A stretch of DNA of 15,685 nt, from assembly GCA_034660555.1 (NCBI GenBank), contig JAYEJL010000055.1, forward strand, positions 1-15,685, written 5' to 3'. The notes below the pieces were generated by a model that was given only the letters and a program-made list of their open reading frames with translations, was not told the DNA's origin and did no database searches. This DNA is from Thermotogota bacterium (GTDB taxonomy: Bacteria; Thermotogota; Thermotogae; Petrotogales; Kosmotogaceae). The position numbers were made by a program, and so were the translations under genes. Positions 1 through 15,685 of the stretch are shown piece after piece (the stretch's first letter is position 1; each line of letters opens with the position of its first letter).

Positions 1-123
1 ATAAGTAGTGAATTCAGCAACGGAATAATAGAAGGTGTCATAAACAAGATAAAGGTGATTAAGCGGGTTATGTATGGTAGATGCTCGTTTGAACTACTCA
101 AAGTGAAGGTTATGATGCTCTAG
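1..123 (+). CDS. ISL3-family transposase, C-terminal end (5' part outside the window)
   Basis: Frame 1 reads ISSEFSNGIIEGVINKIKVIKRVMYGRCSFELLKVKVMML*, matching the ISL3 C-terminal motif SNGxxEGxNxKIKxIKRxxYG...F. Not in the ORF track. Confidence 0.9.
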   Translation: MSSEFSNGIIEGVINKIKVIKRVMYGRCSFELLKVKVMML

Positions 124-145
124 TCAGATACTTTGCGGAAGAACC
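124..145. mobile_element. Right terminal inverted repeat of the ISL3 element
   Basis: Directly after the transposase stop, TCAGATACTTTGCGGAAGAACC; the reverse complement starts GGTTC, as ISL3 ends typically do. An AT-rich flank follows (AGTTTTAT). The left IR is outside the window. Confidence 0.7.
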
Positions 146-432
146 AGTTTTATTTTATCGTTTACAAAATAACGAAATTTGAAGATTTCTACTACATATA
201 TGTTTCTAGTGATGCATCCATATATAAATTTAGCGATTTAACTGACCCGGTCTGTGTAGGTAAAGAGTTTCCTTATCATATTACTGGACTTGAGGTTGAA
301 GGAGATATACTTTACTTTGTGTCAAATTTTGGAAAAGGATTTTATAAATATAACACAGCTAACAATTTGTTAATTAAACTATTTGAATTGAATTCTCCAG
401 ATCGTCTGTACATGATTACATATCATAAGTGA
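146..432 (+). pseudogene. 3' fragment of a hypothetical gene, 5' truncated by ISL3
   Basis: The TTG start of ORF 133-432 lies inside the IS end and has no RBS. The remainder is beta-strand/aromatic-rich (ITGLEVEGDILYFVSN..FYKYN), reminiscent of a beta-propeller blade. Confidence 0.45.
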
Positions 433-553
433 CACTCCACAGGGCAAGCCCCGTGGCTTCTGCTTAGTTTTCTAAGCATTCTTTTTCTTGCTTTGACGAC
501 GACTCCAACGAATCATCTCCACAAGCGTGAATTCCGCTGTGCCACAGCGTATT
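429..553 (-). ncRNA. TnpB omegaRNA (reRNA) scaffold
   Basis: Minus strand: AATACGCTGTGGCACAGCGGAATTCACGCTTGTGGAGA...AAAGCAAGAA...TGCTTAG-AAAA-CTAAGCA-GAAG-[RE hairpin]-GTGTCAC. The 5' hairpin segment TGGCAC can pair with the 3' GTGTCA (pseudoknot) and GCTT with AAGC, as in TnpB reRNAs. Confidence 0.8.
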
Positions 554-672
554 AAAACCTCTTGTTTATACATGTGTTTACTATCATACTTAGAATTTGT
601 TAAGTGTTTTTTTAATTATTTTGCCAATTCATCCCTGATGTAAGCATATGGGGTTTTCTTGGCAGTTTTTTT
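429..672 (-). mobile_element. Non-autonomous IS200/IS605-family derivative (PATE-like), no tnpA or tnpB
   Basis: Minus strand left end: TTAT target (676-673), then AAAAAAACTGCCAAGAAAA-CCCCATATGCTTACATCAGGG-ATGAATTGGCA. Right end: GAAG-CCACGGGG-CTTG-CCCTGTGG-AGTGTCAC. Guide/cleavage pairs AAAA/TTAT and GAAG/TCAC follow the IS608 pairing scheme (AAAG/TTAC, GAAT/TCAA). Confidence 0.88.
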
Positions 673-753
673 ATAACTCTCAAATTGATCCTCATTTAAG
701 GAATAACGGTGATCAAGTGAGCTTATATTATCAAATACATTTCGCTTAACCAT
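673..753 (-). pseudogene. purB: Adenylosuccinate lyase 5' stub (27 codons), truncated at the mini-element
   Basis: RBS AGGGAGG, then MVKRNVFDNISSLDHRYSLNEDQFESY, resembling the PurB N-terminal ISPLDxRY motif. Lies directly downstream of purE and ends exactly at the TTAT target. Confidence 0.6.
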
Positions 754-775
754 ATTCCTTACCCTCCCTTAAATT

Positions 776-1291
776 TTAGTCAAAATGTTTAGCCAGATAA
801 TACCTGTATCCGGGCTCTGTAAGTTCTTTAGAGGTTTCTTTAACTCTATCAGCCATCTCACCTTTAAACCTCTTAAATTTACTTCTTAGTTCATCATCTG
901 CTACACCTAAAATCTGCACAGCCAGTAACTCTGCATTTTTAACGCCATTTAAAGCAACAGTTGCAACAGGAACCCCAGGCATCTGGACCATTGAATATAA
1001 TGAATGAGCACCACCCAGGGTCGAAGTCTTTACAGGAACTCCTATAACCGGCAGTGAAGTATAGGCAGCCAGAACCCCTGCCAGTTGAGCCGCTTTACCT
1101 GCTCCTGCAATAATGACCCTGATTCCTTACTCTTCCGCAGACCGGGCATATTCCTCTGCCAGTTCCGGTGTCCTGTGGGCTGAAATTACTTTCAATTCAT
1201 ACTCCACTTTAAACTCTTCCAGAATCTCAGCTGTCTCCTTCATTACCAGTAGTCTGGAATCACTACCCATCACAACACCTACTTTGAACAT
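776..1291 (-). pseudogene. purE: N5-CAIR mutase with an in-frame stop
   Basis: [12 protein letters not shown]...ISAHRTP...EE*GIRVIIAGAGKAAQLAG...LPVIGVPV...VQMPGVPVATVA. TAA at 1129-1127 (codon 55); conserved SDSD changed to SDSR and AAH to AAQ. Confidence 0.93.
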
Positions 1292-1292
1292 T

Positions 1293-1463
1293 CTAAACAC
1301 CTCTTTGATTTTTTAAGGCCTTTTGTCCGATATCAGTTTGATACTGGATACCGGAAAAATTTATTTTTTCAATAACCTTATAGGCTCTCTCAATCGAATC
1401 ATGAAAGGAATCATCAACAGCAGATACTCCCGGGACTCTACTTCGTGCAGTTACCAAGTCACT
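1293..1463 (-). pseudogene. purD: Phosphoribosylamine-glycine ligase C-terminal remnant
   Basis: [56 protein letters not shown] aligns to the PurD C-terminus (LVTxGGRVLxV...AY...I.F.G.QYRxDIG). No start codon; its stop sits 1 nt before the purE ATG. Confidence 0.82.
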
Positions 1464-1503
1464 ATAAAATAAAGATATAGCAACATTGCTATATATATCT
1501 ATT

Positions 1504-1562
1504 AAAAATGCCCAGGTCGGGTAGATACTACTTTACTAAGAGTAGAACCTCCTCGCCTGGGC
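1504..1562 (-). terminator. Intrinsic terminator, the riboswitch expression platform
   Basis: Minus strand: GCCCAGG-CGAGGAGGTTCTACT...AGTAGTATCTACCCGA-CCTGGGC followed by ATTTTT. The 5' arm overlaps the 3' end of the ykkC aptamer. Confidence 0.7.
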
Positions 1563-1716
1563 TTTTTATCCCTTTGGTGTAATATAAGAAATCAGCACCT
1601 CACGAACCTGCCATTATTAGATGATAATTGATCATTGCCAATTAGCACAAAATCCTGGTTTACAAAAACTAGGAATGTAAATTCCTGCAATAAAGCGTAA
1701 ACCAAGGTACACTTTC
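1545..1716 (-). ncRNA. ykkC subtype 2 (PRPP-type) riboswitch aptamer, degenerate
   Basis: Minus strand: GAAAGTGTACCTTGGTTTACGC...GGTTCGTGAGGTGC...ACACCAAAGGGATAAAAAGCCCAGGCGAGGAGGTT, against the remembered consensus GAAAGTGTACCTAGGGTTCCG...CCGAGCGGTAC...ACACCnnnGGGAnAAAAGCCCGGG. Lies upstream of pur genes. Confidence 0.8.
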
Positions 1717-1784
1717 CTCATAGCTAGGTAGTTTATGGCCATCCGGTAGATGCTTATGTACCTTATTCCCAAAATTATATGAGG
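1716..1784 (-). ncRNA. Purine (guanine-type) riboswitch aptamer, degenerate
   Basis: Minus strand: CCTCATA-TAAT-TTTGGG-AATAAGG-TACATAA-GCATCTACC-GGATGG-CCATAAA-CTACCTAG-C-TATGAGG. P1 is intact, the TCTACC junction and L2 GG / L3 CC are retained, C sits at the discriminator position, and P2 is mismatched. Confidence 0.85.
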
Positions 1785-1810
1785 TAATATTACATTCTGT
1801 TTTCAACTAT

Positions 1811-1839
1811 GTATTAACAGATAAATAATATCTAGTCAA
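1811..1839 (-). promoter_or_regulatory. Sigma70/SigA-type promoter of the pur leader
   Basis: TTGACT-17 nt-TAATAC with TG just upstream of the -10, about 25 nt before the guanine aptamer. Confidence 0.55.
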
Positions 1840-1885
1840 TAAAATTCAATAATTTAAACAAAATTTAAATATTCATAAAGTTTTT

Positions 1886-2758
1886 TTATTTAGCCATAAA
1901 TTCGTCAGAAAAATCCTTAGCATGATATGAGCTGCGAACATAGGGGCCGGAGGCAACATATTTAAAACCCAGTTCCCGGCCAATATCCTTATACCGGTCA
2001 AATTTTTCTGGTTCAATATATTTCACTACAGGCAAATGATCTCTGGTAGGTTGGAGATATTGACCGATAGTAAAGATATCACAGTCAATTGACCTCAGGT
2101 CTTTCATTACCTGTACTACCTCATCCTCTTTCTCCCCCAGACCGACCATGATACCTGATTTTGTGTAAATAGAATCATTTAATTCTTTAACATACTTCAA
2201 GACAGATAGAGAGCGTTGATAATTAGCCTCTGGTCTAACTCTGGAGTAAAGGCGGGGAACCGTTTCAACATTATGATTATAGATATTCGGGCCAGCTGCT
2301 ACCACCTCTTTTATGGCATCTCTATTCATTTTAAAATCTGGAGTCAAGATTTCAATAATAATTTTTGAATCCAGTTTATGAATATTTTCTATTGTTCTAA
2401 TAAATTGTTCCGCTCCACCATCAGGTAGGTCATCCCTTGTAACCGAGGTGATAACTACATGTCTCAATCCCAGTTTGCCCACTGCCCTTGCCAGTCGAAC
2501 TGGTTCCTCATCGTCTATGGGACCAGGATATCCGGTCTTAACCGCGCAGAAGCGGCAGTTCCGGGTGCAAACATCCCCAAGTATCATAAAGGCTGCTGTT
2601 TTGTTGGCAAAACACTCTCCAATATTGGGGCATCTAGCACTCTGACAGACGGAATGGAGTTCAAATTCCTTTAAGACCTTCCTGGTTTCAATCATTTTCT
2701 GGTTAAAAAGGTTTTTATGTCGCAGCCATTCAGGTAATCTTTTTCTATTCTTTTTCAT
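1886..2758 (-). CDS. lipA: Lipoyl synthase (radical SAM)
   Basis: CX4CX5C ([12 protein letters not shown]), CX3CX2C (CTRNCRFC), [20 protein letters not shown] and RSSY are all intact. Confidence 0.97.
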
Positions 2759-2778
2759 TTATATTGCCCTTTCTAAAA

Positions 2779-3597
2779 CTACCTTTTGTAGATCCAATTA
2801 TAACAATTATATTTTTCTTTACTCAATTTTTCAACCCATTCCTCTTCTTCATCAATCAATTCACCAGTAATAAGTTTTATGCCAAACCTCTTTTCCCAGC
2901 CTTTCTTAATAGCTTTCTTTAAGTCAGTAATTTCAATTTTTTTATCGGACTCCTGGTTTACTGCAGTTGCTTTCTTTAAAAATCGTTTCTTCATTCTCTC
3001 TCTCACTCTCTGACCCGGCATCTTTAAAGTCCTGTATAGCTGATCAGCATTAATAGTTATCGGAATAGAACCGTGCTGGAGTATTACTCCCTTCTGCCTG
3101 GTCTGGGCACTTCCGACCAGCTTTTTTTCAGCTACAACTACTTCATTCAGGGAAGGTGCGTCAAAACAGGCCGCCGAAAACCCGCTGGGAGCCTTCTTCT
3201 TTCTTTTTGCCAGTTTTAATTCTGCAGCCAGGCCGAGGGAATTTAACCCATTTATAATCCCTTCACTGATAATTTTATAGCTTTCCAGGATATTATTAGG
3301 TAAAAAATCAGTCTTCTCCCCGATAACGATACTATAGGTAAGCTCATCATCATGGAGAATAGCTCGTCCACCGGTTAAACGGCGAACAATATCAATATTA
3401 TTTTCTTTACAATATTCTGCGTCTACTTCCTTTTCTGCTTGCTGAAAATAACCTAATGATAATGCAGGTGAAGACCACTGATAAAAACGTACAGTAGGCG
3501 GAACCAGTCCTATCCGGTGCGCATTCATAACAGCTTCATCGACAGCCATATTATAAAATGCATTATTTGACCCGGTATCAAGCAAACGCCACTCCAT
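2779..3597 (-). CDS. lipM: Octanoyltransferase LipM / lipoate-protein ligase family
   Basis: NMAVDEA, RRLTGGRAILHD, ACFDAPS, KLVGSAQ and LQHGSI; about 272 aa with no LplA C-terminal domain. Start moved to ATG 3597 (RBS GAGGAG). Adjacent to lipA. Confidence 0.85.
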   Translation of the reverse strand: MEWRLLDTGSNNAFYNMAVDEAVMNAHRIGLVPPTVRFYQWSSPALSLGYFQQAEKEVDAEYCKENNIDIVRRLTGGRAILHDDELTYSIVIGEKTDFLPNNILESYKIISEGIINGLNSLGLAAELKLAKRKKKAPSGFSAACFDAPSLNEVVVAEKKLVGSAQTRQKGVILQHGSIPITINADQLYRTLKMPGQRVRERMKKRFLKKATAVNQESDKKIEITDLKKAIKKGWEKRFGIKLITGELIDEEEEWVEKLSKEKYNCYNWIYKR

Positions 3598-3648
3598 GCT
3601 ATCGCTCCTCAAAATAATATTTGTCTACTAAAGCTCTTGCATAATTAA

Positions 3649-4275
3649 TTATGCAATGAATCTTGAAAGATGTCTAACTAATAAACCGTAAAACAAATTT
3701 AAATAAGGGCTTATATATGTTTCAATAATGGAACCACCAAATAATATAAAGGCTAGCACTGCCATATCAAATGAATATTTGAGAAAATGCTGAAAATTAA
3801 GCCTTTCAATTCTCCAGTAATACTTTATTATCCAGATACTGAGATAAATACCCATTACACCAGCCAGAATATATGTAGGAATAATCAGGATGTTCTGTGG
3901 GAAAATGGCTGTTAAAGTAATCATAATTCCTTTGTATCCATATTCACTTACCAGAAATCCAACTGTAAAACCCATAACAAATCCTTTGAAAAAGATTAAT
4001 AATGTTATAAAGGACATTAAAAAAACCGATATAACAAAGGCCCAGATTATAGCAATATTAAAGAGATTAAATCTTATACTTTCACTAACAAGAGAATGGT
4101 GATCATACTCCAGATTGTTTAAGCTGCTCATAAAATTATTAAAATAACTGAATAGGCTCTGTTTAACATGATATTCAACTGTCTTCACTGCAATAGAACC
4201 AAATATAATCCCCAGAATAAAAATAATAGCAACAAATGTAAAGAGTGATAACCTATCCCTTAAAAAAGTATTCAT
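3649..4275 (-). CDS. spoIIM: Stage II sporulation protein M family membrane protein
   Basis: FILGIIFGSIAV, FFKGFVMGFTVGFLV, IFPQNILIIP and IIETYISP are typical SpoIIM motifs; 208 aa. Confidence 0.88.
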   Translation of the reverse strand: MNTFLRDRLSLFTFVAIIFILGIIFGSIAVKTVEYHVKQSLFSYFNNFMSSLNNLEYDHHSLVSESIRFNLFNIAIIWAFVISVFLMSFITLLIFFKGFVMGFTVGFLVSEYGYKGIMITLTAIFPQNILIIPTYILAGVMGIYLSIWIIKYYWRIERLNFQHFLKYSFDMAVLAFILFGGSIIETYISPYLNLFYGLLVRHLSRFIA

Positions 4276-4376
4276 AGTTAAGCCCCCGGGAATGGAGAAA
4301 GTACTGTCAAATCATAATTATAGGAAATTTATTGATGATGAAGAACATAAAACCCTTTAGAATGTTTTGATCTGCA

Positions 4377-4385
4377 TGATATAAT
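4377..4385 (+). promoter_or_regulatory. Extended -10 promoter element
   Basis: TGATATAAT (TGnTATAAT), 60 nt upstream of the 4446 ATG. Confidence 0.5.
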
Positions 4386-4445
4386 CATCCTGTTCTTGAA
4401 ACAAAAACTACAGGCTGTATCACAGTTACAAAGGGGGTTTATCTT

Positions 4446-5189
4446 ATGGACCTTTCATTTTTAGATAGTTTACTAAAAACTGTTGTAGAGAATTGGTTTA
4501 TAGTTCTTCCAGTAGCGCTATTCATGTACTTTGGGGCACGATTTCTTGAATCAGTAACGCTTTTTCTTGTCGGTGCTGCGATAGGTTTCTTCTACATTAA
4601 CCCACTTGTCATGAGCTGGGTTACTGAAAGATTTGAGTTAACTGATATGTGGTTGAATGTTTTGCCCTACATAATAGCTGTTGTTGTAGCGATTGCTTTT
4701 CTTGCTATTTATAAGATCGCTGTATTCGTTCTTGTGGCTATTGCTTCAGGGGGACTTGTATATTTTCTGCTTGAAATTATTGCTGATGCTATTGTCAAGT
4801 CGAAGGAGACTGTACCGGGAGATGTAACAGGTTTTCTACAAAGTGACACTGCATTCTACGTATTTGTCGGAATAGCTGTCGTTGTTGGTATTATAGGTGG
4901 AATAATCGGAACAAAGAGGAGCAAAGAGTTCTTTCAGGTTTTTTCTATCATATTGGGATCGATCGGTATCGTGCTGTCCCTTTATACATTTATAATGACA
5001 TTGATAATTCAGGGTGAACCGCTGTTCAGAAGGCTTACCCAAGAAGAGGTTGACAAATTAACTAGTGATTTGGGCGCAATGCACTTGTTGATAATGGCTT
5101 TAATAGTTGTGGTTTTGTGTATTTATAAAATAACAAGGTTGTTCAGGAAAAAACGACCTATAACGCACCAGGAAAATATCCAGGAATAG
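4446..5189 (+). CDS. Hypothetical multi-pass membrane protein (DUF4203/TMEM198-like)
   Basis: About 7 hydrophobic segments, FGARF..TLFLVG and SIILGS patterns, RBS AAGGGGG. The family call is tentative. Confidence 0.7.
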   Translation: MDLSFLDSLLKTVVENWFIVLPVALFMYFGARFLESVTLFLVGAAIGFFYINPLVMSWVTERFELTDMWLNVLPYIIAVVVAIAFLAIYKIAVFVLVAIASGGLVYFLLEIIADAIVKSKETVPGDVTGFLQSDTAFYVFVGIAVVVGIIGGIIGTKRSKEFFQVFSIILGSIGIVLSLYTFIMTLIIQGEPLFRRLTQEEVDKLTSDLGAMHLLIMALIVVVLCIYKITRLFRKKRPITHQENIQE

Positions 5190-5222
5190 TCTACTAGATT
5201 TGAGAGGTGAACCTTTTTCAAG

Positions 5223-6509
5223 ATAAATAAAGAAGCAAAAAGAGTCCTTGACACACTTTCAAAATTGGGATATGAAGCATACCTGGTGGGAGGATGTGTC
5301 AGGGATCTTTTTTTGGGCAGAGAACCAAAAGATTGGGACATTTCAACAAATGCAACTGTTGAACAAATGTTGTCAATATTCAAAGATGAAGGTTATACAA
5401 TAGTACCCACGGGAATTCAACATGGTACTGTAACAGTTGTTATTAATAAAGAAATGTACGAAATAACATCCTTTAGGGGTGAAAATATCATAAATGATCT
5501 CAGGTGGAGGGATTTTACAATAAACGCTCTTGCTCTGGATGCAGAAAACAATGTTATTGATCCGGAGGGTGGTCTTGAAGATATCAAAAGCAAAATAATT
5601 CGCTCTGCTAATCCGGAAAAAGCCTTTAAAGACGATCCTCTCAGGATGCTTAGAGCTGTAAGGTTCAAAGCACAGTTAGGGTTCAAAATAGAAGACAGGA
5701 CCAAGAATACTATTTCCAGGCTCAACAATTTATTGGAAAAGGTTAGCTTAGAGCGTATAAGAGATGAATTCAACAAAATAATACTTTCTGATCCATATGT
5801 ATTATTTGGTCTTGTAGATTTTGATCTAATGAAATTCATCTGTCCTGAGTTTTTAGGAACCATTGGAATAGACCAGAAAAATCCCAATCATCATCTGGAT
5901 GTTGCAAATCACATTATTGAATCCATGGTTGTTATTCCAGCTGAACTGGTTTTGAGATTGACTATGTTCTTTCACGATATAGGAAAACCACAAACAATGA
6001 AAATCGGATCAGATGGGATTGGCCATTTTTATTCTCACAATATAACCAGTGAAAATATTGCAAGTAGAACGCTTAAAAGATTGAAATATAGCAGCAAAAC
6101 AATAAAAACAGTTAAACATCTGGTTCATTATCATGATTCATTTCCTGAAGAAAACAAAAAATCAGTAAGTCGTTTTGTGAACAAACATGGAGTTGAATAC
6201 ACTGAGCTTCTCTTTCATGTGTGGCGTGCCGACATGAAAGCTCAGGAACCTACTAGATTACAGGGAAAACTTAATACAATAAACAATGTCGAAGAAATAT
6301 TTAACGAGTTAAGAGAAAGCAAATTTGCAATTACAGTAAAAGATTTGAAAGTAGATGGGGACGATATTATAAAGCTCGGGATTAAAGAAGGACCCGAAAT
6401 TGGAGGAATATTGAATAAATTACTTCAGGTAGTTGTGGATGATCCAGAAATGAACAAAAAAGAAAAACTCGTTGAGCTGGCAAAAAAACTTAAAAAACAA
6501 GATGAATAG
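5223..6509 (+). CDS. cca: Class II tRNA nucleotidyltransferase with HD domain; flexible loop absent (probable CC-adding enzyme)
   Basis: YLVGGCVRD, DWD, HGTV, RDFTINALA, DDPLRMLRAVRF, ERIRDEFNK, FHDIGKP and DLKVDGDD. Homology extends upstream of TTG 5265 to about 5220, so the start is uncertain. Confidence 0.9.
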   Translation: MNKEAKRVLDTLSKLGYEAYLVGGCVRDLFLGREPKDWDISTNATVEQMLSIFKDEGYTIVPTGIQHGTVTVVINKEMYEITSFRGENIINDLRWRDFTINALALDAENNVIDPEGGLEDIKSKIIRSANPEKAFKDDPLRMLRAVRFKAQLGFKIEDRTKNTISRLNNLLEKVSLERIRDEFNKIILSDPYVLFGLVDFDLMKFICPEFLGTIGIDQKNPNHHLDVANHIIESMVVIPAELVLRLTMFFHDIGKPQTMKIGSDGIGHFYSHNITSENIASRTLKRLKYSSKTIKTVKHLVHYHDSFPEENKKSVSRFVNKHGVEYTELLFHVWRADMKAQEPTRLQGKLNTINNVEEIFNELRESKFAITVKDLKVDGDDIIKLGIKEGPEIGGILNKLLQVVVDDPEMNKKEKLVELAKKLKKQDE

Positions 6510-6528
6510 ATAGTCTTTTTATAAATAT

Positions 6529-6558
6529 AAAGCTGCATTCTTTGTGAATGCAGCTTTT
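6529..6558. terminator. Bidirectional intrinsic terminator between cca and bcp
   Basis: AAAGCTGCATTC-TTTGT-GAATGCAGCTTT, a perfect 12-bp stem between convergent genes. Confidence 0.85.
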
Positions 6559-6609
6559 AGGGGATAAGTGCTAGCATTTATTTGGTAATTACTTTTTTCA
6601 ACTCATTAT

Positions 6610-7086
6610 TTAATTGCAATTACTTCTAATAAATTCCAGCACTTCTTCGACATAATCTTTCACCTTTATGTTCCTAAATTCTTTTATTAATACTACATCT
6701 TTGTTCAGTACAAAGGTTGACCTTACTGTTCCCAATCTCTCTTTTCCGAACATTTTCTTTTTCTTTATCACATCGAACATTCTGCGTACTGAAGCATCGG
6801 GATCGCTTAGAATGTTAAAATTCAGATTAAGCTTGTTGTGAAAGTTAAGATGTGACTTGACGCTGTCTTTGCTTATACCTATAACAGCGGTATTAAGTTT
6901 ATCAAACTTGCTCATGTAGTCGCGAAAACTTTCTGCTTTAAATGTACATCCAGGCGTATTATCCTTTGGGTAAAAATAAACCACTACACATTTGCTTTTG
7001 AAATTTGATAGTGAAATATCTTTTCTATCTTCGTTTTCTAGTGTAAAATCCGGTACTTTTCTTCCAACGCTAATTTGATTGTCCAT
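6610..7086 (-). CDS. bcp: Peroxiredoxin BCP/PrxQ
   Basis: VVYFYPKDNTPGCT, GISKDSVKSH and RSTFV; RBS GGAGGAGG. Confidence 0.93.
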   Translation of the reverse strand: MDNQISVGRKVPDFTLENEDRKDISLSNFKSKCVVVYFYPKDNTPGCTFKAESFRDYMSKFDKLNTAVIGISKDSVKSHLNFHNKLNLNFNILSDPDASVRRMFDVIKKKKMFGKERLGTVRSTFVLNKDVVLIKEFRNIKVKDYVEEVLEFIRSNCN

Positions 7087-7177
7087 TATATCCTCCTCCT
7101 GTTTAGAATCATTCTAAACTACTTGTTGATATGATATAATCAATAGTAAAGAACGTAAACAAGTAGAGGTGATTGTT

Positions 7178-7330
7178 ATGTTCTTTGATAACAAAAAAGA
7201 AAAAGACAAACGAAAGCAGAATAAGAGTGGAAGTTTTTGGCTTAGTTGGAATCCAAAAGATAAAGAAAAGAACAAAATGCACATGAGAAAGCTGTTTATG
7301 TTTGACAAATTCTTTAAAAACAAGAAATAG
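7178..7330 (+). CDS. Small Lys-rich hypothetical protein (50 aa)
   Basis: MFFDNKKEKDKRKQNKSGSFWLSWNPKDKEKNKMHMRKLFMFDKFFKNKK*, with TGATATAAT at 7132-7140, RBS GAGGTG at 7166-7171 and a downstream terminator. Confidence 0.7.
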   Translation: MFFDNKKEKDKRKQNKSGSFWLSWNPKDKEKNKMHMRKLFMFDKFFKNKK

Positions 7331-7353
7331 TTGCAATAATAAATTATGATAAC

Positions 7354-7380
7354 AAAAAAGCCCGCCTTTAGGCGGGCTTT
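7354..7380. terminator. Bidirectional intrinsic terminator
   Basis: AAAAAAGCCCGCC-TTTA-GGCGGGCTTT between the small ORF and the convergent phosphatase gene. Confidence 0.88.
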
Positions 7381-7398
7381 ACTATTTATTTAGAAATA

Positions 7399-8457
7399 TC
7401 AGTAATAAAGTTTTTCCTGCAATTTCAAGATTTCATCAAAGGTTAAGCCAACTTTGTCTCTAAGATAATTGAAAGCTATGGTATTTACGTTATCGTTTGT
7501 AATTTCCTTACCGCCGCTGATATTTTCAAGAATACCCTCTATTATTCCTACCACTGCTTCATAGGCATCTGTTCCGGGTTTAACATGGTAATAGTTCACA
7601 TATGACTGAGCATAATCTTCATATATTTCCTCTACTGTTCCTCTCATAAGGGCACCAAGGATTGCAACTGTGATGCCAGCTCTGTCTTTACCCTCAACAC
7701 AGTGAATTAGATATGGCGGTTCATTGTTTATCAAGAAAAGTGAACCTTCTCTCAGATTATGAGCGAATTTATCGCTTGCAAGGTCAACTCCCATATTTAA
7801 ATTAATGACCTGTCCCTTTTCATTCAATGATTTATAGAAGTCGGATATTTCGCATGCCGTTTGAAGCTCTTCAACTGAATCTGATAGATTGATAACGGTG
7901 TTAATACCTGCTTCTTCACATAATTCATTTGCGTAGGGAGCTCTAGGATCATCGATAGCGGGATGAGAAGATCTATAAAGTGTACCGGGTTTAATATAGC
8001 CTATTGTGACTTCTCTGAAATTGGCAAAAACGGCATCGCTCTTATAATCATCCCTGTCATCTGTTCTGACAAGATGTCTCAGCTCGAGTTCCTTCTTATA
8101 AGCACCTTCCACAAGAATACTTATCTCAACTTCGTCGCCTACTTCGAGACCGTAGGTTTTGGAGAAATTACCGTAATTAATTGCCAGAAGAACATGATCA
8201 CCGGTGATTCTCACAAGAGGGTTACCGGTGTCCACATCACCATAAGTGGTAACAAAAGGTGCTTCAATAACTTCACCATCAAGTCTTACTTCTAGCATAT
8301 CTCCAAGTTCGAAACCTGCTTCTTCAACAGTAGTTTCGAGAATGTTGGTGTGAACATTTCCATATTTGTCTACCTCAGCAACTGTACCTGTCACCTGGGC
8401 AAGAACAACTGCTGCAAAAACAAGAACCAATCCTAGCAAACCAAGCTTTTTGAACAT
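7399..8457 (-). CDS. Secreted protein: SAM hydroxide adenosyltransferase C-terminal-like domain fused to a tyrosine/dual-specificity phosphatase (Y_phosphatase3-like)
   Basis: Signal peptide MFKKLGLLGLVLVFAAVVLA; VDKYGNVHTNI...TYGDV...LAINYGNF (DUF62 C-domain pattern); NFRE..LYRSS and P-loop HCVEGKDRAG. Start ATG 8457 with RBS GGAGGTG. Confidence 0.8.
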   Translation of the reverse strand: MFKKLGLLGLVLVFAAVVLAQVTGTVAEVDKYGNVHTNILETTVEEAGFELGDMLEVRLDGEVIEAPFVTTYGDVDTGNPLVRITGDHVLLAINYGNFSKTYGLEVGDEVEISILVEGAYKKELELRHLVRTDDRDDYKSDAVFANFREVTIGYIKPGTLYRSSHPAIDDPRAPYANELCEEAGINTVINLSDSVEELQTACEISDFYKSLNEKGQVINLNMGVDLASDKFAHNLREGSLFLINNEPPYLIHCVEGKDRAGITVAILGALMRGTVEEIYEDYAQSYVNYYHVKPGTDAYEAVVGIIEGILENISGGKEITNDNVNTIAFNYLRDKVGLTFDEILKLQEKLYY

Positions 8458-8662
8458 TCCTAACACCTCCAGCGTTAAGATTATAAGAAAATAACTTACA
8501 AAAATCAGACAAAATAATTATAGCACGCTGATACCTGGTGACAATTTGACGTATCTCTTAAATTTTTCACACTCATATTGATCGCATTATATTGTTAAAG
8601 GGAACTACAAGACTTCAAACTGAAATACGCATATTGTTATTTATAGTTGTTATAATTTAACC

Positions 8663-9432
8663 ATGAAAATATATCGTTGGATTAATTGCCCAGAAGAAGC
8701 ATCATTCATAAACAGTCCTAATCGCTTCACCGCGATTGTAAAGGGCAAAAGCTTCGAAAAACTGGTTTACCTTCCTGATCATGGAAGACTTGAAAGGCTG
8801 CTTATTCCAAATGTTAATGTCATCATGAGAAAAGAAGAGAAACAGGCAAAACACACCATGCTTTTCTTCTTGTAGAAACTGTGTCTTTCCCTGACAAAAG
8901 ACTATTGATGGTAAGTGTTGACTCAAGACTTCCAAATATCCTCTTTAGATGGCTTATAGAAGAGGAACTCATAAACCATTTTGATAAAATCAAGCAGATA
9001 AAATCCGAACCAAAGGTTGATAATGGTCGCCTTGAGTATTATATTGAAAGTACTACAGGAAAGCACTATATTGAACTTAAATCTGTGAATTTGATTGATG
9101 CTTCTGGAACAGCGAGATTTCCAGATGCACCAACAAAAAGATGAACTAAACATTTAAATGAATTAATGAATTTGAAAAATCAGGGATACAATTCCAGGAT
9201 ATTTTTTCTTGTTGTTAGAGGCGATGCGATTTCATTTAGTCCATTTTTCGAAAGAGATCCTTTGTTTTCAAAGACGGTGCAAAAAGCAAAGAAAGCGGGA
9301 ATAAATATCAAAGCATTGAAATTTGAAGTAGATAATGAAATTAGTTTTCTTAAAGAGATTCCTGTAAAGCTCAAACAAAATCCATTTGCAGGTTATTTAT
9401 TGGCCAGAATAGATTTTAACAAGTGTTTGTAA
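8663..9432 (+). pseudogene. sfsA: DNA/RNA nuclease SfsA, disrupted
   Basis: PNRF, LPDHGRL, IELKSV, FPDAPTKR*TKHLNEL and DPLFS. One frameshift near 8845-8880 and an in-frame TGA at 9142-9144 replacing the conserved Gly. Confidence 0.9.
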
Positions 9433-9446
9433 TAACAAAGACTTCA

Positions 9447-10928
9447 TTATAATATAGAACAGAATCTCAGTAGTTTTTCATGAATTTTGACCATGGCCAA
9501 TGTATCCAATTTGCAGTACTCAAGAAGGTTCTTTCTTATCCTTTCCATTTCCTGCTCTGAATAATCTCCACGTGCCATTTTTGCAAATATGTAGCAAGCA
9601 TCGTCACCATTTTTTATTTCCAAACCTTCATATGAGAAATCTGGTATGAGAGCAGGCAGAACATTTTTTATAGAAAAGCTTCCATGAAAACCTGGATGAT
9701 ATACATGCTCTTTTACAAGCAATTCCAGATCAACAAATTTGTCAATCATATTACTTAAAGCTGTTGTCAATTGATCATCGTATTCATTTCGTTTTATTAG
9801 GTTTTTTATGACATTTTTTTCAAAACTATCATGATATGCCATAAGCGTTTTGATTTCTCTGGTATCCTCCACAAGTGTTTCTGCAAGTTTTTTTGATTCA
9901 TCCATAGAAGGATCAAAAAACAGGTAATCCAGATGTTTAATGGGAGAATCAAGATTCTCCTTAATGTGTAAAGAATACTGAAAAGGAAGCTTTTCGTAAG
10001 GTGTTAAATCTCTGTAAAGTGGCAACGCAGTACTGACGGTTTCAAAATCGAGATATCCAATAGGATACCTCAGTTCATAAAGTTTTTCCCATAGTCCACG
10101 TTTATCATCAATAATTAGTTTATTTTCACTAATTGACCTAAAGATTCTTCTATGCAAATCTTTTACAAGCTTATCTTTATCTAGTTGTTCCAGTAAAAAG
10201 ATGCCTTTATTAATTAGTTCCTTAACATGACTGTGATACATGTTGTGAAGTACAAATATTGTTTTATCTCTATCTAGATCAAAGCAATCGTTAAAATAAT
10301 CACAGCTTCTACATTCGTATTTGAATTCGGGGTCAGGTTTTTCTAGTTTTCCCAGTATCTCAACGGCTCTTTCTTTTTCTGGTAAAAAATCATCTATAAG
10401 TTTGTGAACTTCATTAGAAACATCACATAGTTCAAACAGATTTTGATCTGACAAGCCTTTCCTATAGTTTTCAGATACTAGTATTAAAGTAGCACCATTC
10501 ACTTTATATCCAGCATCTTTTATAACCATCACTGTATAAGCGATATCCTTGATTAGATCCTTTATTTGTTTGGTGTTGATTTTACTGGATTTGACTTCGT
10601 ATACCTTCAAACCGTCAGGTGTTTCCTCAATAATGTCTGCTCTGGCCACAAAATTTCCGTTAACAAATGCTGCTTCATAAATGGTATTGAAGGACTGAGC
10701 CCTGAACATGCATTTGGTAATGTCCTCTGCAATAAAAGGATTTTTTTCTTCCAGTAAAATTCCTTCTGGGAAAAGCTGGCGTGCTCTTTTCTCGATTTCA
10801 ATACCTTCTTCTTTTCTGTATTTATCAGCAAGAGAATCATCTTTTTTTGGTGGATTGTGAGCCTCTATCCATCCTTTTACAGGGCACTTCAAAAATTCCA
10901 GGAAGGCATTTTTACTTATTAAAGGCAT
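9447..10928 (-). CDS. DUF2779-type protein: Cas4/RecB-like PD-(D/E)xK domain plus RNase H-like exonuclease domain
   Basis: ISK..F...CP, ARADII, YEVKSS, CRSCDYFNDC (1+3 Cys pattern), then YLDFET, PFQYSLH, SFEK, SFSIKNVLP and YCKLDT. Confidence 0.85.
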   Translation of the reverse strand: MPLISKNAFLEFLKCPVKGWIEAHNPPKKDDSLADKYRKEEGIEIEKRARQLFPEGILLEEKNPFIAEDITKCMFRAQSFNTIYEAAFVNGNFVARADIIEETPDGLKVYEVKSSKINTKQIKDLIKDIAYTVMVIKDAGYKVNGATLILVSENYRKGLSDQNLFELCDVSNEVHKLIDDFLPEKERAVEILGKLEKPDPEFKYECRSCDYFNDCFDLDRDKTIFVLHNMYHSHVKELINKGIFLLEQLDKDKLVKDLHRRIFRSISENKLIIDDKRGLWEKLYELRYPIGYLDFETVSTALPLYRDLTPYEKLPFQYSLHIKENLDSPIKHLDYLFFDPSMDESKKLAETLVEDTREIKTLMAYHDSFEKNVIKNLIKRNEYDDQLTTALSNMIDKFVDLELLVKEHVYHPGFHGSFSIKNVLPALIPDFSYEGLEIKNGDDACYIFAKMARGDYSEQEMERIRKNLLEYCKLDTLAMVKIHEKLLRFCSIL

Positions 10929-11212
10929 AATAACCTCCGGATCACTAAAAATCCAAATTTATAAGTTATACATATCTCAACTCCATTGTAATACTTAACG
11001 AAGAATTTACTAAACAAGGTGAAGACACAATTCATTTTTTACATAATGAAAGGAAGAGTTTTTTCGTTTTTGAACAGGGGCGAAAAATGCTTCTTATTGT
11101 ATAAATTATTCTGCTACTGAGATTTATTTGATAAGTTTCTATGCTTTATACTTTAAATATAAATTGAAATTAATATTGATTATACATTCTTAATGAAACG
11201 GAGGAAATATTC

Positions 11213-13702
11213 ATGTTTGGAAATAGCAGGCCCAGAACAAAGGCTGTTAAAGATAAATCAGAAACAGAAAGAGAAAAGATCCATAAAAAACTTGTGTGTC
11301 GTTCTGCCTCTGAAAGAATTGTGCTTCTTGAAAATGATGGAGTATTACCAATAAAACCTGGAAAATTGCTCATTATGGCGCTGGCGCAAAAAAGACAATT
11401 AAGAGTGGAACAGGATCTGGTGGAGTAAATGAGAGGCATAGCGTAAGTATTCTAGAGGGTCTGGAAAAAGCAGGTTTTACCATTACAACAATGAAATGGA
11501 TTAACAACTATTATGAACGCCTCTATACTAAAAGATTGAATGAGTACAGAGAAGAAATGTCAAAGAAAATGAGTGTGTTCAACCCTAATAAAGCCGCCGA
11601 AGCAATGGAAATACAATTTAGTTATCCCTATGAACGAAAAATAACAAATGATGATATAAAACTCAGTGAAACAGATACATGCATTTATGTATTTGCAAGG
11701 CAATCCAGCGAGGGTTATGACCGCAAGTTAGGCAATAATGACTATGATTTATTTGTCGGAAATCGAAATAGAAAATATTAGAAAGTGTGCTGAATCCTAC
11801 AAAATAACGATTATTGTGGTTAATGTAGGTTCAACCTTCGATCTAAGTTTTATGGATGATATTTCGGGCATAATAGCACTTGTTTATTTTTGTCAGCAGG
11901 GTATGGAAGGCGGCACAGCATTTGCTGATATTATTTCAGGTAGAGTATCTCCGTCTGGGAAACTTGCTGATACGTGGCCAAAAAAGTATGATGATATCCC
12001 CTTTGCTCGCGAATACAGTTATCTAAAAGATAATTTAGAGAATGAATATTATAGGGAAGGAATATATGTAGGATACAGATATTTCGATACTTTTAATATA
12101 GAATCTAAGTAAGAATTTGGATATGGGCTTAGTTATACAAATTTCGGTATTTCATTCATTGATGTTAAAGTTAATGGAATAAATGCAATAATAAAAGTCA
12201 AGGTCACAAATACAGAAACGATTTTTCCGGAAAAGAAGTCGTTCAACTATATGCTAGTTGCCCACAGAACAAACTGAAGAAAGAATATCAGAGACTTGCA
12301 GTCTTCACAAAAACAAGAGAATTAAAGCCAGTAGAATCCCAAGAAATAGAAATGATGATCGATATAACATCTTTGAAGAGCTATGATGAAGAAAATTGCA
12401 GTTTTATCCTTGAAAAGGGAGATTATATAGTTCGACTTGGAAATTCTTCTAGAAACACAGAACCATGTGTTGTTCTAACCTTGATAAGAATGTGGTTTTA
12501 TCAAGACATGAAAATGTATGTGAGCCACAAGCAAAAATTGATGAGATTCAACCTCCAATAGTCAATTATAAGGAAGATTTATCAAACTTAAAAAAGATTA
12601 TAATTGATTCCTTAAGTTTTGAAACAGTTAATTATGAATATAAAAAACCTGCTACGTATCATGATGAAAAAGTGGATAGATTGATGCACAGACTTAGTTT
12701 AAAAGATATGATTGAGCTTGTAGTGGGTGCGGGTATCAAATCGAGTTTATTCAATAAGAATTACTTCAATGTACCTGGTGCATCTGGGAATACGACATCT
12801 AAGCTGGTAAAAAAAGAATCATAAATGTAACCCTTGCTAATGGGTCTGCTGGTTTGCGGTTGCAGAAAACATCTACGGTTGGCAGAAGAGGAAAAATAAA
12901 GATGGTTGATGCTCAGCTTGAACTACTTAACTACCTGCCAAAAATGACAAAAAAACTAATTTTTGGAAACCCTGATAAAGATGTTTTACTTTACCAATTT
13001 ACTACAGCCTTTCCTGTTGAACTTGCGATGGCACAGACCTGGAACACAGAACTGCTTGAAGAAGTGGTAAGAGCTATAAGTACCGAAATGGATGAATATG
13101 GCATTACTTGCTGGTTGGCTCCTGCTGTTAATATACATAGAAACCCTTTATGTGGGCGGAATTTTGAATATTACAGCGAAGATCCTTTTCTTTCAGGGAA
13201 GCTAGCAGCAGCTATTACCAACGGTGTACAAAGCATTGAAGGTAATTATGTGACAGTAAAACACTTTTGTGCAAACAATCAGGAAGATAACCGTATGAGA
13301 GTCTCCAGCAACATTAATGTACGAGCGCTTCGAGAAATCTATTTAAAAGCTTTTGAAATTGTTGTATGCGAAGCTAATCCAAAAGCAGTGATGACAAGTT
13401 ACAATTGGTTGAATGAAATATATACAGCAAACAGTTATGATTTATGCACAAAAGTACTGCGCAACGAGTGGGACTTTGATGGTGTTGTGATGACTGACTG
13501 GTATTCTACAGCAGAAGGTCTTGCAGATAGCGCTTCTTGTATGAAAGCAGGTAACGATTTGATTATGCCAGGAGGGAAGTATTACAAAAAGGAAATTCTT
13601 GCTGGTTTTAAAAGTGGAAAAATAGCTGAGGAAGATATTATCCGTTGCGCTGCCAATGTTCTCAGGAGTATAGTTTACAGCAAGCTCGCGCGGGAATATT
13701 AA
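11213..13702 (+). pseudogene. GH3 beta-glucosidase with inverted domain order (C-domain, Fn3, TIM barrel), fragmented
   Basis: IVLLENDGVLP, GTGSG, SEGYDR, SPSGKLADTW, YREGIYVGYRYF, FGYGLSYT, GKEVVQLY, GRNFEYYSEDP, KHF and MTDW are spread over several frames, with at least 5 frameshifts and a TAA at 12110-12112. Confidence 0.92.
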
Positions 13703-13739
13703 GCAGGAAATGAATAAGCAAATTTTAAGGTGATGAAAT

Positions 13740-14117
13740 ATGGATTTTTGTTGGATAACGGTTCTTATTAATGAACTGGAGGAATCATTGGAGTTCTACA
13801 CCAGACTTCTTGGAATGAAAATATTTGAAAGATTCAGATCAGGTGATGATGTAGAAATAGCAATGCTTGGTGAAGAAGACTCAACAAAGATTGAATTAAT
13901 AGATGATAATAATTATGATGTTAAGCTTAAAAGTAAAGGTATTTCAATAGGTTTTGAGGTTGATTCTATGAACGCTGCAATGAAGTATGTAAAGAACAGT
14001 GGAATAGAGATAAAAAGTGGGCCAATTTCACCTAATCATTCAATCAGCTTTTTCTTTATAGAAGATCCCAATGATATTGAAATACAATGGTTGAAAACAA
14101 AGAAATATAGTATCTAA
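13740..14117 (+). CDS. VOC family (glyoxalase-like) protein
   Basis: LEESLEFYTRLLGM, KIELI, IGFEVD and FFIEDPN. The C-terminus may be frameshifted. Confidence 0.85.
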   Translation: MDFCWITVLINELEESLEFYTRLLGMKIFERFRSGDDVEIAMLGEEDSTKIELIDDNNYDVKLKSKGISIGFEVDSMNAAMKYVKNSGIEIKSGPISPNHSISFFFIEDPNDIEIQWLKTKKYSI

Positions 14118-14281
14118 TTATTACTGTAATTTTTAAAACTGCCCAATTTGTCTCAAAGAAAAATGTAAAGAGGTGGGAGCCTTAAACAACAAAATTAGAT
14201 AAAAATCATCATCGAATTCAGCTCCGCCCTTTGTTTATAAAAATAACAATAGCAAACTATGGTCCAAATTAATGCTCTTTA

Positions 14282-15439
14282 TTAATTGTTTTTATTCATG
14301 TAGTAATTCATAAGTATCTTGGCTACTTCCGGTCTTGTGAATTCTTTGGGTGGCATTTTTCCTTCAGATAACATTTTTCTTACTTTAGTGCCACTGAGAA
14401 AGACATGGTTTTCTTTTCCATGGGGGCAGGTCTTACTGCTGGCCATATTCTCACATTTTGTGCAATAAAAAGCATGTTCAAATTTTAATGGAGTTATTCC
14501 AATTTCTTCCGGTTCAAATTGTTCAAATATTTCCTGGGCTTCGTATGTACCATAGTAATCACCTACGCCCGCGTGGTCTCTACCTACAATGAAATGGGTA
14601 CAGCCGAAGTTCTTTCTGCAGATAGCATGGAATATTGCCTCTTTTGGGCCTGCGTATCTCATATTAACAGGGAATACTCCAAGAGCCACTCTTTCCTTCA
14701 CATAATACTTGTCGATTATTGTTTCGTATGTCTTTAGCCTTACATCGGAAGGTATATCACCAGCTTTTGTTTTTCCAACGAGAGGATTAATAAAGAGTCC
14801 ATCAACTATTTCTAAAGCTGTTTTTTGTAGATATTCGTGAGCCCTGTGTATCGGGTTTCTGGTCTGGAAAGCTACCACAGTGTTCCAACCTCTATCTTCA
14901 AACATTTTCCTTGTTTCTACAGGATCAAAACGGTAATCAACAAAATCATCGTGTTTAATCCTGTTTAAAAGTGTTATTTTTCCACCAAGAGCAATATCGC
15001 CAAGACTGTAAAGAAACTTTACTCCCGGATGTTCTTCGCTGTCAGTTTTGTATACACTTTTTGCTTCTTCTTTTTTCTCTCTTCTGTATTTATCTTCCAG
15101 ATGTAAAATTGCATATTCTGTACCATCTTCAGCTGTTATTAAAACATCATTGTTAAGATTAAGTTGATCTGCTGTCTCTTTATTTACAGATAGTACTATT
15201 GGTATAGTCCAAACTACTCCACTAGATAATCGCATGTTTTCCAGTACAGAATTATAATCTTTTACTGTCATAAAGCCTTCCAGAGGACTAAAAAGTCCCG
15301 ATGCGATATTCTCCATTTCTGAAAGATCCCAGTATGATACCTTTATCTTCTTCAATTCTTCCTTTTTCGATAACCATTTTTGTTTCTCCTCTTTAGTTGC
15401 TATTCTGTTTACAAGTTTTCCACCATGTGGTTGTATCAT
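14282..15439 (-). CDS. sat: Sulfate adenylyltransferase (ATP sulfurylase)
   Basis: [46 protein letters not shown] and a Zn site CTKC..C.H. Start ATG 15439 with RBS AGGAG. Confidence 0.96.
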
Positions 15440-15463
15440 GAATTTCACTCCTTTTTTAATGAC

Positions 15464-15491
15464 GAGAAAAGAGACTAGAGATCCGAGATTC
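15464..15491. repeat. Degenerate heptamer tandem array (4x)
   Basis: GAGAAAA GAGACTA GAGATCC GAGATTC. Confidence 0.6.
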
Positions 15492-15513
15492 AACAAAAAG
15501 ATTAATAAAACAA

Positions 15514-15543
15514 GTTGTACGTGGTACGTGGTACGTTGTACGT
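15514..15543. repeat. Heptamer tandem array (4x GTKGTAC)
   Basis: GTTGTAC GTGGTAC GTGGTAC GTTGTAC GT. Confidence 0.9.
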
Positions 15544-15558
15544 AAATTCAAAAAACAC

Positions 15559-15584
15559 CGTTCTGACCCCCTAAAATTGGACAC
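15559..15584. mobile_element. Right inverted repeat of an IS3-family element
   Basis: CGTTCTGACCCCCTAAAATTGGACAC, an IS3-like IR (TGxxCTGACCCC...GGACA) 13 nt past the transposase stop. Confidence 0.72.
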
Positions 15585-15597
15585 GGAACAATAACAA

Positions 15598-15685
15598 TCA
15601 CCTTTTTACTATGATTATCTTTGAATTATTACCCTTTTCCTTGTAAGCCATGGGGGTTTCATAATTCAAAGATGCATGTGGCCTC
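15598..15685 (-). CDS. IS3-family transposase (integrase core), C-terminal end, partial
   Basis: Minus strand reads RPHASLNYETPMAYKEKGNNSKIIIVKR*, matching the IS3 RPHxSLxYxTP motif. Confidence 0.85.
   Translation of the reverse strand, partial: RPHASLNYETPMAYKEKGNNSKIIIVKR

Follow-up and report, generated by a model that had tools for sequence, protein, structure and literature searches.

IS200/IS605 insertion sequences (IS) transpose through folded single-stranded DNA ends. In Meers et al. 2023 (PMC10055086), gene-less elements resembling palindrome-associated transposable elements (PATEs) are described in Geobacillus stearothermophilus (ISGst), and PATEs are stated to "often encode" omegaRNAs, which would need TnpB in trans. 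A second report (PMC7290912) gives a 271-nt PATE-like element of Halanaerobium hydrogeniformans that lacks tnpA and is composed of a left-end (LE) hairpin, the final 58 nt of tnpB and a right end (RE), and a 2023 IStron preprint presents a PATE with IStron ends. Here we describe an element of this kind in a 15,685-nt stretch of DNA (the window) from a Thermotogota bacterium of the Kosmotogaceae (GenBank assembly GCA_034660555.1, contig JAYEJL010000055.1, positions 1 to 15,685). It is a non-autonomous IS605-family mini-element, or PATE, of 244 bp on the minus strand (429..672), a two-copy repeat in its genome and co-linear with nucleotides 1-117 of the LE and the last 125 nt of a full-length relative, locus L010. 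We consider it, with good confidence, an orphaned and decaying PATE with an intact omegaRNA scaffold, most likely an immobile relic.

The element resembles the PATEs of G. stearothermophilus and H. hydrogeniformans in being short, free of open reading frames (ORFs) and bounded by an IS605 LE and RE, and differs from them in belonging to another sequence family. Its architecture is that of the H. hydrogeniformans element: here the LE is followed by the terminal 93 nt of the tnpB reading frame, stop codon included, and then by the RE. The H. hydrogeniformans element has 28 nt of the LE, whereas 117 nt are present here, reaching through the promoter and the ribosome-binding site. G. stearothermophilus has many TnpA and TnpB partners, whereas none was found in the present genome. 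Both the architecture and the idea of an omegaRNA carried by a PATE are already in print, and the element adds an example, not a principle.

The TnpA of the family matches the solved TnpA chains of IS608 and ISDra2 at about E 3e-23 (3.7e-23 for IS608 of Helicobacter pylori, 2A6M/2A6O). As in IS608, both ends carry subterminal imperfect hairpins and no terminal inverted repeats, and insertion is 3' of a fixed tetranucleotide; no target is duplicated, and the tetranucleotide at the right end is also fixed. The tetranucleotide pairs of IS608 are TTAC/AAAG and TCAA/GAAT, and the pairs here, TTAT/AAAA and TCAC/GAAG, stand in the same register. The LE cleavage site of IS608 lies 19 nt 5' of the hairpin foot, a distance also found in the window. 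Unlike IS608, the present family has TTAT rather than TTAC as its target, its full-length parent carries an extra ORF resembling ribbon-helix-helix (RHH) proteins before tnpA, and the window element is gene-less.

The 386-aa TnpB of the family matches the solved ISDra2 TnpB chains of Deinococcus radiodurans (TnpB-omegaRNA complexes 8H1J, 8BF8 and 8EXA) over residues 4-371 (E 2e-57). In ISDra2 the omegaRNA scaffold is encoded by the 3' end of tnpB together with the RE and the guide is taken from the flank, and the same is predicted here. The target-adjacent motif (TAM) of ISDra2 is TTGAT, whereas the TAM predicted here is TTAT; the scaffold defined by covariation measures about 128 nt and matches no Rfam family, and the window is without a TnpB. 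A likeness to TldR and nuclease-dead TnpB-like repressors would consist in a TnpB-type guide RNA encoded away from a transposon nuclease gene. However, no TnpB-like gene was found in the genome and the guide region is ordinary flanking DNA with no second target; nothing supports a TldR-type reading.

Borders, copies and gene content

The borders of the element come from the comparison of two copies in the 2.1-Mb draft genome (188 contigs, 95.5% complete). Blastn and pairwise alignment delimit a 244-bp repeat unit with sharp limits, window 429-672 (-), the second copy of which lies on another contig of the same genome (C58:164-407; hereafter the C58 copy) with 92.2% identity across 244 nt and 21 differing positions. 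With the flanks included in the pairwise alignment, the similarity is bounded by GTTAT on one side and closes with GTGTCAC on the other, exactly so in both copies, and the flanks are otherwise unrelated. The element is thus present more than once in differing contexts, with a common deletion junction. A third copy was not found in the genome by blastn at word size 7, all other matches being at most 26 nt long with E of at least 0.077. The same limits (429-672, -), with TTAT at 673-676 and a flank at 409-428, had been drawn in a sequence-only reading of the window, made without database searches. That reading had counted a single-copy state as a sign of an inert scar, and the genome holds two copies.

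The tetranucleotide TTAT (673..676, -), predicted to be both the target of TnpA and the TAM of TnpB, abuts the left end on its 5' side, as it does in 20 of 20 rows representing 18 distinct elements (16 relatives and both own copies). At the opposite border, the right-end cleavage tetranucleotide TCAC (429..432, -) forms the final bases of the element; the terminus is GTCAC in 61 of the 62 related loci with oriented right ends and GTCAA in L055. The DNA that follows, UUAUGAUAUGUAAUCAUGUA (409..428, -), would be the guide of a read-through omegaRNA, as assigned by its position only.

Within 429-672 the sole frame is a 31-codon remnant of tnpB, and no ORF of 50 aa or more lies inside. A 45-aa ORF with a good Shine-Dalgarno (SD) sequence (615-752, -) enters the left end from the flank across the TTAT border; it would have 28 codons if the insertion were absent and is probably not a gene. 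Contigs from four sequencing runs, one of which may be the source of the window DNA, gave further matches to the element that break exactly at 428/429 and at 671, and in one of them the interior is replaced by 138 nt. This comparison concerns contigs only, with no assignment to cells, and places more members of the element family in the community. None of the sequencing runs listed as containing the stretch is recorded as RNA.

Parent family and internal deletion

A 21-mer of the right end matched one genome contig (L009), and a 24-base right-end pattern with two free positions matched 49 metagenome loci and 12 viral-contig loci. Left ends were located with the left 118 nt of the window element and then with an nhmmer profile of left ends. 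They were found upstream of the right ends at several discrete distances, and a complete LE is present in 16 distinct relatives.

The full-length class measures 1,881-1,884 bp (L010, L016 (=L065), L030 and L036) and has the order LE, small RHH-like ORF, Y1 tnpA, 386-aa tnpB, RE. All four members contain the 134-aa and 386-aa ORFs; the small ORF, of 51-70 aa, is listed in L016, L030 and L036. In Pfam the 134-aa ORF is Y1_Tnp (PF01797, 6.1e-36) and the 386-aa ORF is TnpB (OrfB_IS605 PF01385, 1.3e-30; Cas12f1-like TNB PF07282, 1.5e-21; HTH_OrfB_IS605 PF12323, 1.4e-17). The ends of the window element are therefore common to four autonomous Y1 (HUH) TnpA elements. The small first ORF (50-70 aa; L016 1216-1425, L036, L030 and L059) lies between the left end and tnpA and resembles RHH_1 weakly, at E 0.0018, which does not pass the cut-off; the ORF may encode a small regulatory protein that travels with this lineage of IS605 elements.

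The same LE, RE hairpin and TTAT target are found with three cargos: tnpA with the 386-aa tnpB, tnpB only, and a LAGLIDADG ORF. The tnpB-only elements (about 1,428 bp; L021, L028, L038, L039, L043 and L063) have a single ORF of 416-419 aa, a TnpB too (419-aa ORF; Pfam 1.1e-25 and 5.8e-10) and unrelated to the 386-aa type, with a different 3' interior and a distinct 3' scaffold. In the 1,115-bp element L066 (=L070), on a viral contig, a 272-aa ORF with a LAGLIDADG domain (Pfam 1.9e-10) replaces tnpB and the type-2 3' region is kept. Element L059 (1,792 bp, viral contig) is otherwise full-length, with tnpA and a 357-aa tnpB, but little remains of its scaffold region from the tnpB end to stem 3, and it scores 54.9 bits with the covariance model R1 described below. 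Apparently its TnpB has no guide scaffold of its own, the converse of the window element. Mini-elements of 231-259 bp without an ORF are L024, L041, L050 and L054, and three loci cut by the start of their contig (L049, L053 and L057) have a partial left end 175-244 nt upstream of the right end. Right-end fragments without a detectable LE (L022/L048/L060/L067, L013/L037, L026, L046, L009 and L069) are fused in frame to unrelated upstream ORFs, by which host or phage ORFs acquire a tnpB tail (...ACGDGS..LKQEKECL.N, then stop). L069 has two right-end-like copies about 1 kb apart.

Alignment with the 1,882-bp L010 element (blastn) gives the parentage of the mini-element and the place of its deletion. 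Nucleotides 6-94 of the window element align to L010 5-94 and nucleotides 5-116 of the C58 copy to L010 5-117, and in both copies 120-244 align to L010 1758-1882 (91% identity for the window). The deletion junction lies at 553..556 (-), is the same in both own copies, and corresponds to the loss of about 1,640 bp, L010 118-1757, which removes the RHH-like ORF, tnpA and tnpB codons 1-355. Codons 356-386 with the stop remain (467..559, -); tblastn with the L010 TnpB recovers this remnant at 80.6% identity over 31 aa (E 3.9e-8) and recovers the corresponding one in the C58 copy. The parent mapping and the remnant frame agree with the initial recognition of an IS200/IS605 mini-element with both ends and deleted protein genes, and the shared junction that was to be looked for is identical in the two genome copies; the tnpA/tnpB-bearing parent that was likewise to be sought exists on metagenome and viral contigs, but not in the host assembly. 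The SD-like AAGAGGT (557..563, -) had been taken for that of tnpB. In L010 the same LE position holds AGGAGGT with an ATG 7 nt later, which makes the motif the ribosome-binding site of the RHH-like ORF that comes first in the parent, before tnpA.

The right part kept in other mini-elements is 144 nt in L041, 135 nt in L024 and 177 nt in L050. Their junctions differ from that of the own copies, and thus mini-elements arose repeatedly, although L024 and L041 may, given their similarity, be one lineage. A search of viral contigs for the same junction gave one match, L096, which on inspection was unrelated sequence.

The omegaRNA-type scaffold

A complete omegaRNA-type scaffold with the right end occupies 429..556 (-). 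The covariance model R1, built from 22 relatives with both own copies left out, matches it from position 1 to 128 of 128 with 145.4 bits (E 2.6e-32) and zero non-canonical pairs. The RNA fold of 409-556 (-) has an energy of -52.7 kcal/mol (z = -5.07), and none of 200 shuffles was as stable. Across 24 right-end regions RNAalifold returned 35 pairs, 16 of them with compensatory changes. Stem 1 (545-549/535-539, -; CGCTG/CAGCG) has 5 bp and a 5-nt loop, and all five of its pairs are doubly changed yet kept, in 2 to 13 of the 24 sequences; stem 2 is formed by 521-525/487-491 and 510-517/498-505 (-), and stem 3 by 472-478/461-467 (-), the latter supported by covariation as is stem 1. The inverted repeats 461-467/472-478 (TGCTTAG/CTAAGCA) and 535-541/543-549 are present. 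Two perfect stems had been proposed from the letters of the window, and both are there and covary; the first, proposed with 6 bp, is the 5-bp stem 1 with its 5-nt loop. In divergent members sequence conservation starts at TAC just before stem 1, near the start of the part retained in the window.

The C58 copy scores 127.4 bits with three non-canonical pairs, and R1 found nothing in the genome beyond the two copies at E ≤ 1. Over the 62 loci, type-1 ends without an insertion in stem 2, the tnpB-linked ones included, score 142-158.6 bits. The 419-aa-type elements reach 37-40 bits through the common RE hairpin alone, and the extra stems therefore track the type of tnpB, not the TnpA ends, a pattern that argues for an omegaRNA rather than a DNA signal of the transposase. 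The scaffold overlaps tnpB codons 356-386, both in the relatives and in the remnant, its structure is backed by covariation, and it matches the tnpB-linked model at full length. By analogy with the established ISDra2 and ISGst elements (PMC10055086), the RNA of the scaffold would be made and bound by TnpB.

At Rfam gathering thresholds the window yields only a purine riboswitch and no family for the scaffold, and at E ≤ 10 the region 350-800 gives four chance-level matches, none of them to a TnpB or IS605 RNA family. The scoring with omegaRNA covariance models that had been suggested for the element succeeded with R1 but not with Rfam. A candidate pseudoknot would pair GGCA in a loop with TGTC close to the 3' end, and the data allow it: the 3' side is invariant in all sequences, and the one position that varies in the loop is G or A opposite U, both able to pair.

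Transposase signals and decay of the two copies

The right-end subterminal hairpin of the window element, CCACGGGG-CTTG-CCCTGTGG (437..456, -), has 8 bp, is intact and is present in 62 loci. Its left-end counterpart (633..653, -) is weakened, reading CCCCATATGCTTACATCAGGG in the window and CCCCGTATGCTTGCATCGGGG in the C58 copy, with three derived G>A changes in the former; in C58 it is intact. The DNA folds reverse this order between the copies: the LE hairpin has -2.4 kcal/mol in the window and -5.0 kcal/mol in C58, whereas the RE hairpin has -6.1 and -2.7 kcal/mol, respectively. The LE hairpin covaries in the relatives (CCTCG-T-GGGC/GCCC-CGAGG, CCCCG-T-CCGC/GCGG-CGGGG and CCCCG-T-ATGC/GCAT-CGGGG), and the apex GCTTGC is common to the LE and RE hairpins. 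As read from the sequence, AAAA (654..657, -) abuts the LE hairpin on its 5' side, opposite TTAT, and GAAG (457..460, -) abuts the RE hairpin likewise, opposite TCAC. By the IS608 model AAAA 654-657 presumably takes the place of the "guide" tetranucleotide of TnpA. Both end hairpins and the tetranucleotides AAAA/TTAT and GAAG/TCAC had been named in the sequence-only reading. The tetranucleotides sit 5' of the hairpins and at the borders as described, and of the hairpins the RE is intact, while the LE carries three derived mismatches. The promoter of the LE survives as a remnant, TTAACA and TAAACA separated by 17 nt (575..603, -), compared with TTGACA, 17 nt and TATATT in the relatives; a consensus promoter scan did not call it in the window.

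The direction of change at the 21 differing positions was assigned by comparison with 16 relatives for the left end and 22 for the right end, leaving three unpolarised. In the left 119 nt the window copy has seven derived changes: three G>A in the LE hairpin, a single change in each of the -35 and -10 hexamers, and two elsewhere. In the right 125 nt it has three, all at unpaired positions. The C58 copy has three in the left 119 nt and five in the right 125 nt (two in stem 3, one in the RE hairpin and two others). Accordingly, 3 of 9 LE-hairpin pairs are broken in the window and 0 of 35 pairs in its scaffold; in C58 two pairs are broken in stem 3 and one in the RE hairpin. Since the LE hairpin is weak in the window and the RE hairpin in C58, each copy has one weakened transposase hairpin. 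The pattern of mutation in the two copies fits neutral decay. It gives no support to the earlier suggestion that the insertion was recent or under selection, as 21 positions differ between the copies, the LE hairpin and promoter are damaged in the window copy, and three pairs of the scaffold and RE hairpin are broken in C58.

Partner proteins and guide targets

The TnpB domains PF07282 and PF01385 gave no match in the genome, where they were not found but, in a draft of 95.5% completeness and 188 contigs, are not proven absent. Tblastn of the genome with the family TnpA, the 386-aa TnpB, the 419-aa TnpB and the RHH ORF returned only the two tnpB remnants. The sole Y1_Tnp match in the genome (C87:11478-11810, E 4e-13) gave no tblastn match to the family TnpA at E ≤ 10, and no cognate TnpA was found. 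A cognate TnpB in the same cell, as an omegaRNA would need, was likewise not found in the draft assembly, and this was the second circumstance that the sequence-only reading had listed as pointing to an inert scar. With the family TnpB as query, none of four genomes of the same genus has a homologue; 15 of 60 relatives do, at no more than 47% identity where the match spans most of the protein. The 244-nt element was not found in the 60 relatives, three of which give only short matches at chance level, of 24-69 nt (E 5e-4 to 8e-4), and it has no match in the plasmid and phage record collections searched with blastn in distant mode.

TTAT followed by a 12- or 16-nt guide, with up to one mismatch and for either copy, has no site elsewhere in the genome, and the 20-nt RE flank has no exact match in viral contigs. 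The search for such sites that had been suggested came back empty in the genome and viral contigs, and the proposal that the guide could load a TnpB encoded elsewhere finds no TnpB domain, family TnpB or family TnpA in the assembly apart from the two remnants. A clean empty site was not obtained in the congeners. In one of them (G003) homology to the RE flank ends at window 430 and continues into an unrelated gene, and at the C58 copy alignment with the congeners begins only some 85 nt past the RE.

Neighbourhood of the element

A purE-like frame (776-1300, -), named from a reading of its translation only, lies upstream of the element on the same strand. It is intact save for an in-frame TAA at codon 58 (1127-1129), which may reflect a nonsense mutation, variation between strains or a mistake in the assembly. 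Farther on, a purine riboswitch aptamer (1701-1802, -) matches the full model with 60.3 bits, the gathering score being 37; the neighbouring riboswitches had been described as decayed, and this one looks undecayed. The contig begins within the C-terminal end of a transposase-like ORF (window 1-167, stop at 121-123), which may be ISL3-like. Bases ~130-167 recur on other contigs and in congeners, which places the end of an IS some 260 bp away from the mini-element. The left flank of the C58 copy (C58 1-164) is the end of a multi-copy repeat found with 86-97% identity on at least seven other contigs and in all four congeners, often at contig ends. With repeats flanking both, the two mini-element copies adjoin other insertion sequences. 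On the plus strand, stem 3 followed by the tail TTCTTTTTCT (461-478) is called as terminator-like just downstream of the convergent ORF 133-432, where 0.3 such sites are expected in shuffles.

Discussion

The history of the element starts from a 1.88-kb IS605-type element (LE, RHH-like ORF, Y1 tnpA, tnpB, RE) that lost about 1.64 kb by one internal deletion. This deletion joined the left end, the promoter and the first ribosome-binding site to the last 125 nt, in which tnpB codons 356-386, the conserved omegaRNA-type scaffold in its entirety and the RE hairpin are contained. Because both genome copies have the same junction, we infer that the resulting PATE was copied at least once, which would have needed TnpA in trans and insertion 3' of TTAT. 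In the present genome the PATE is orphaned and, we infer, inactive: its cognate TnpA and TnpB were not found, one transposase hairpin is weak in each copy, and the promoter of the window copy is degraded, while the predicted guide-RNA module is still intact in sequence.

Several observations weigh against an inactive relic. The assembly is a draft of 188 contigs, multi-copy IS often go unassembled, and both copies stand beside other repeats, so that a full-length tnpA/tnpB element could be hidden among unassembled sequence. The run contigs hold more element ends in other contexts, and one of 122 nt that diverges at 535 may derive from a longer element. On the same strand purE directly precedes the mini-element, and since the scan called no terminator between the two, transcription could read through from the former into the latter. 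The family is also present on 12 viral contigs, so that a TnpB could arrive in trans. Lastly, the scaffold of the window copy is undamaged and all three derived changes in its 3' part fall at unpaired positions, as purifying selection would give. By our own arithmetic the chance of the latter is approximately (55/125)^3 = 0.085, and selection on the window scaffold is not distinguishable from chance.

These points bear most directly on the idea of a working orphan guide gene, in which the mini-element would be transcribed from the LE promoter or by pur read-through and its omegaRNA loaded by a family TnpB supplied by a phage, a plasmid or an IS copy missing from the assembly. The cut site, TTAT with the RE flank, would be the empty donor site, and cutting there would help the PATE to be retained by homing, as has been put forward for the PATEs of G. 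stearothermophilus. The completeness of the undamaged scaffold is what such a gene would have, and all six type-1 mini-elements seen (the window/C58 lineage, L024, L041, L050, L049 and L057) keep all 128 scaffold positions; those with a readable LE retain it through the -10 hexamer, with differing junctions. The presence of the family on viral contigs and the statement that PATEs often encode omegaRNAs for TnpB in trans (PMC10055086) agree with it. Yet neither the assembly nor any of the four congeners yielded a TnpB of whatever type, both promoter hexamers of the window are degraded by derived changes, the damaged LE hairpin would largely forfeit the pay-off of homing, namely a mobile element that is kept, and the scaffold of the sister copy is decaying. 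Loss of the scaffold is tolerated in the family, as seen in the LE-less RE fragments with shorter scaffolds (L013/L037, the L022 group, L009 and L069), and six junctions, with L024 and L041 maybe one lineage, are too few for a claim of selection. We therefore regard a working guide gene as unlikely. Very unlikely, in our judgement, is that the host has recruited the element, be it as a terminator for ORF 133-432, as a 3' stabiliser of the pur transcript or as a guide for a nuclease-dead TnpB-like regulator. The element lies between convergent genes, and the single plus-strand terminator-like site coincides with it, but the stem of that site has only 3 G-C pairs among its 7 and is the family's stem 3 on the other strand, present in every relative. 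The C58 copy stands in a different context with stem 3 broken, no TnpB-like protein of any type turned up in the genome, and the element was not found in congeners, which leaves no conserved host role.

The covarying stems might also be no RNA structure but single-stranded DNA features for TnpA, an IS200-type pair of ends without a link to TnpB. Folded DNA ends of this sort are the rule in IS200/IS605, and the RE hairpin is certainly so used. However, the same LE and RE hairpin occurs with an unrelated 3' interior, the 419-aa TnpB elements having no more than their 37-40 bits on R1, and the stems lie within and just past the tnpB frame, as in the omegaRNAs described in PMC10055086; this explanation is highly improbable. 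A decaying relic with an intact scaffold accounts better for the locus as it now stands. For the family as a whole, its mini-elements might have been selected as "guide-only" parasites that depend on TnpA for movement and on TnpB for homing, and the window copy, its scaffold undamaged, might go on serving as a guide gene once a family TnpB is brought in, for instance by one of the phages that carry the family; we think this reading unlikely. On it, each deletion of the protein genes would have left, in the surviving transposable derivative, the LE promoter fused to a complete omegaRNA scaffold.

A reading of the raw sequence without tools correctly recognised both the omegaRNA and the IS605 mini-element that carries it, with an anatomy accurate nearly to the base; its functional part, a recent or selected element able to load a TnpB, finds no support in the tests made. 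In the host genome the element is an ordinary relic of a mobile element. The family to which it belongs is usable for tests of guides acting in trans, as it offers full-length members, two types of TnpB that share one pair of ends, several independent mini-elements and a covariance model of 128 positions.

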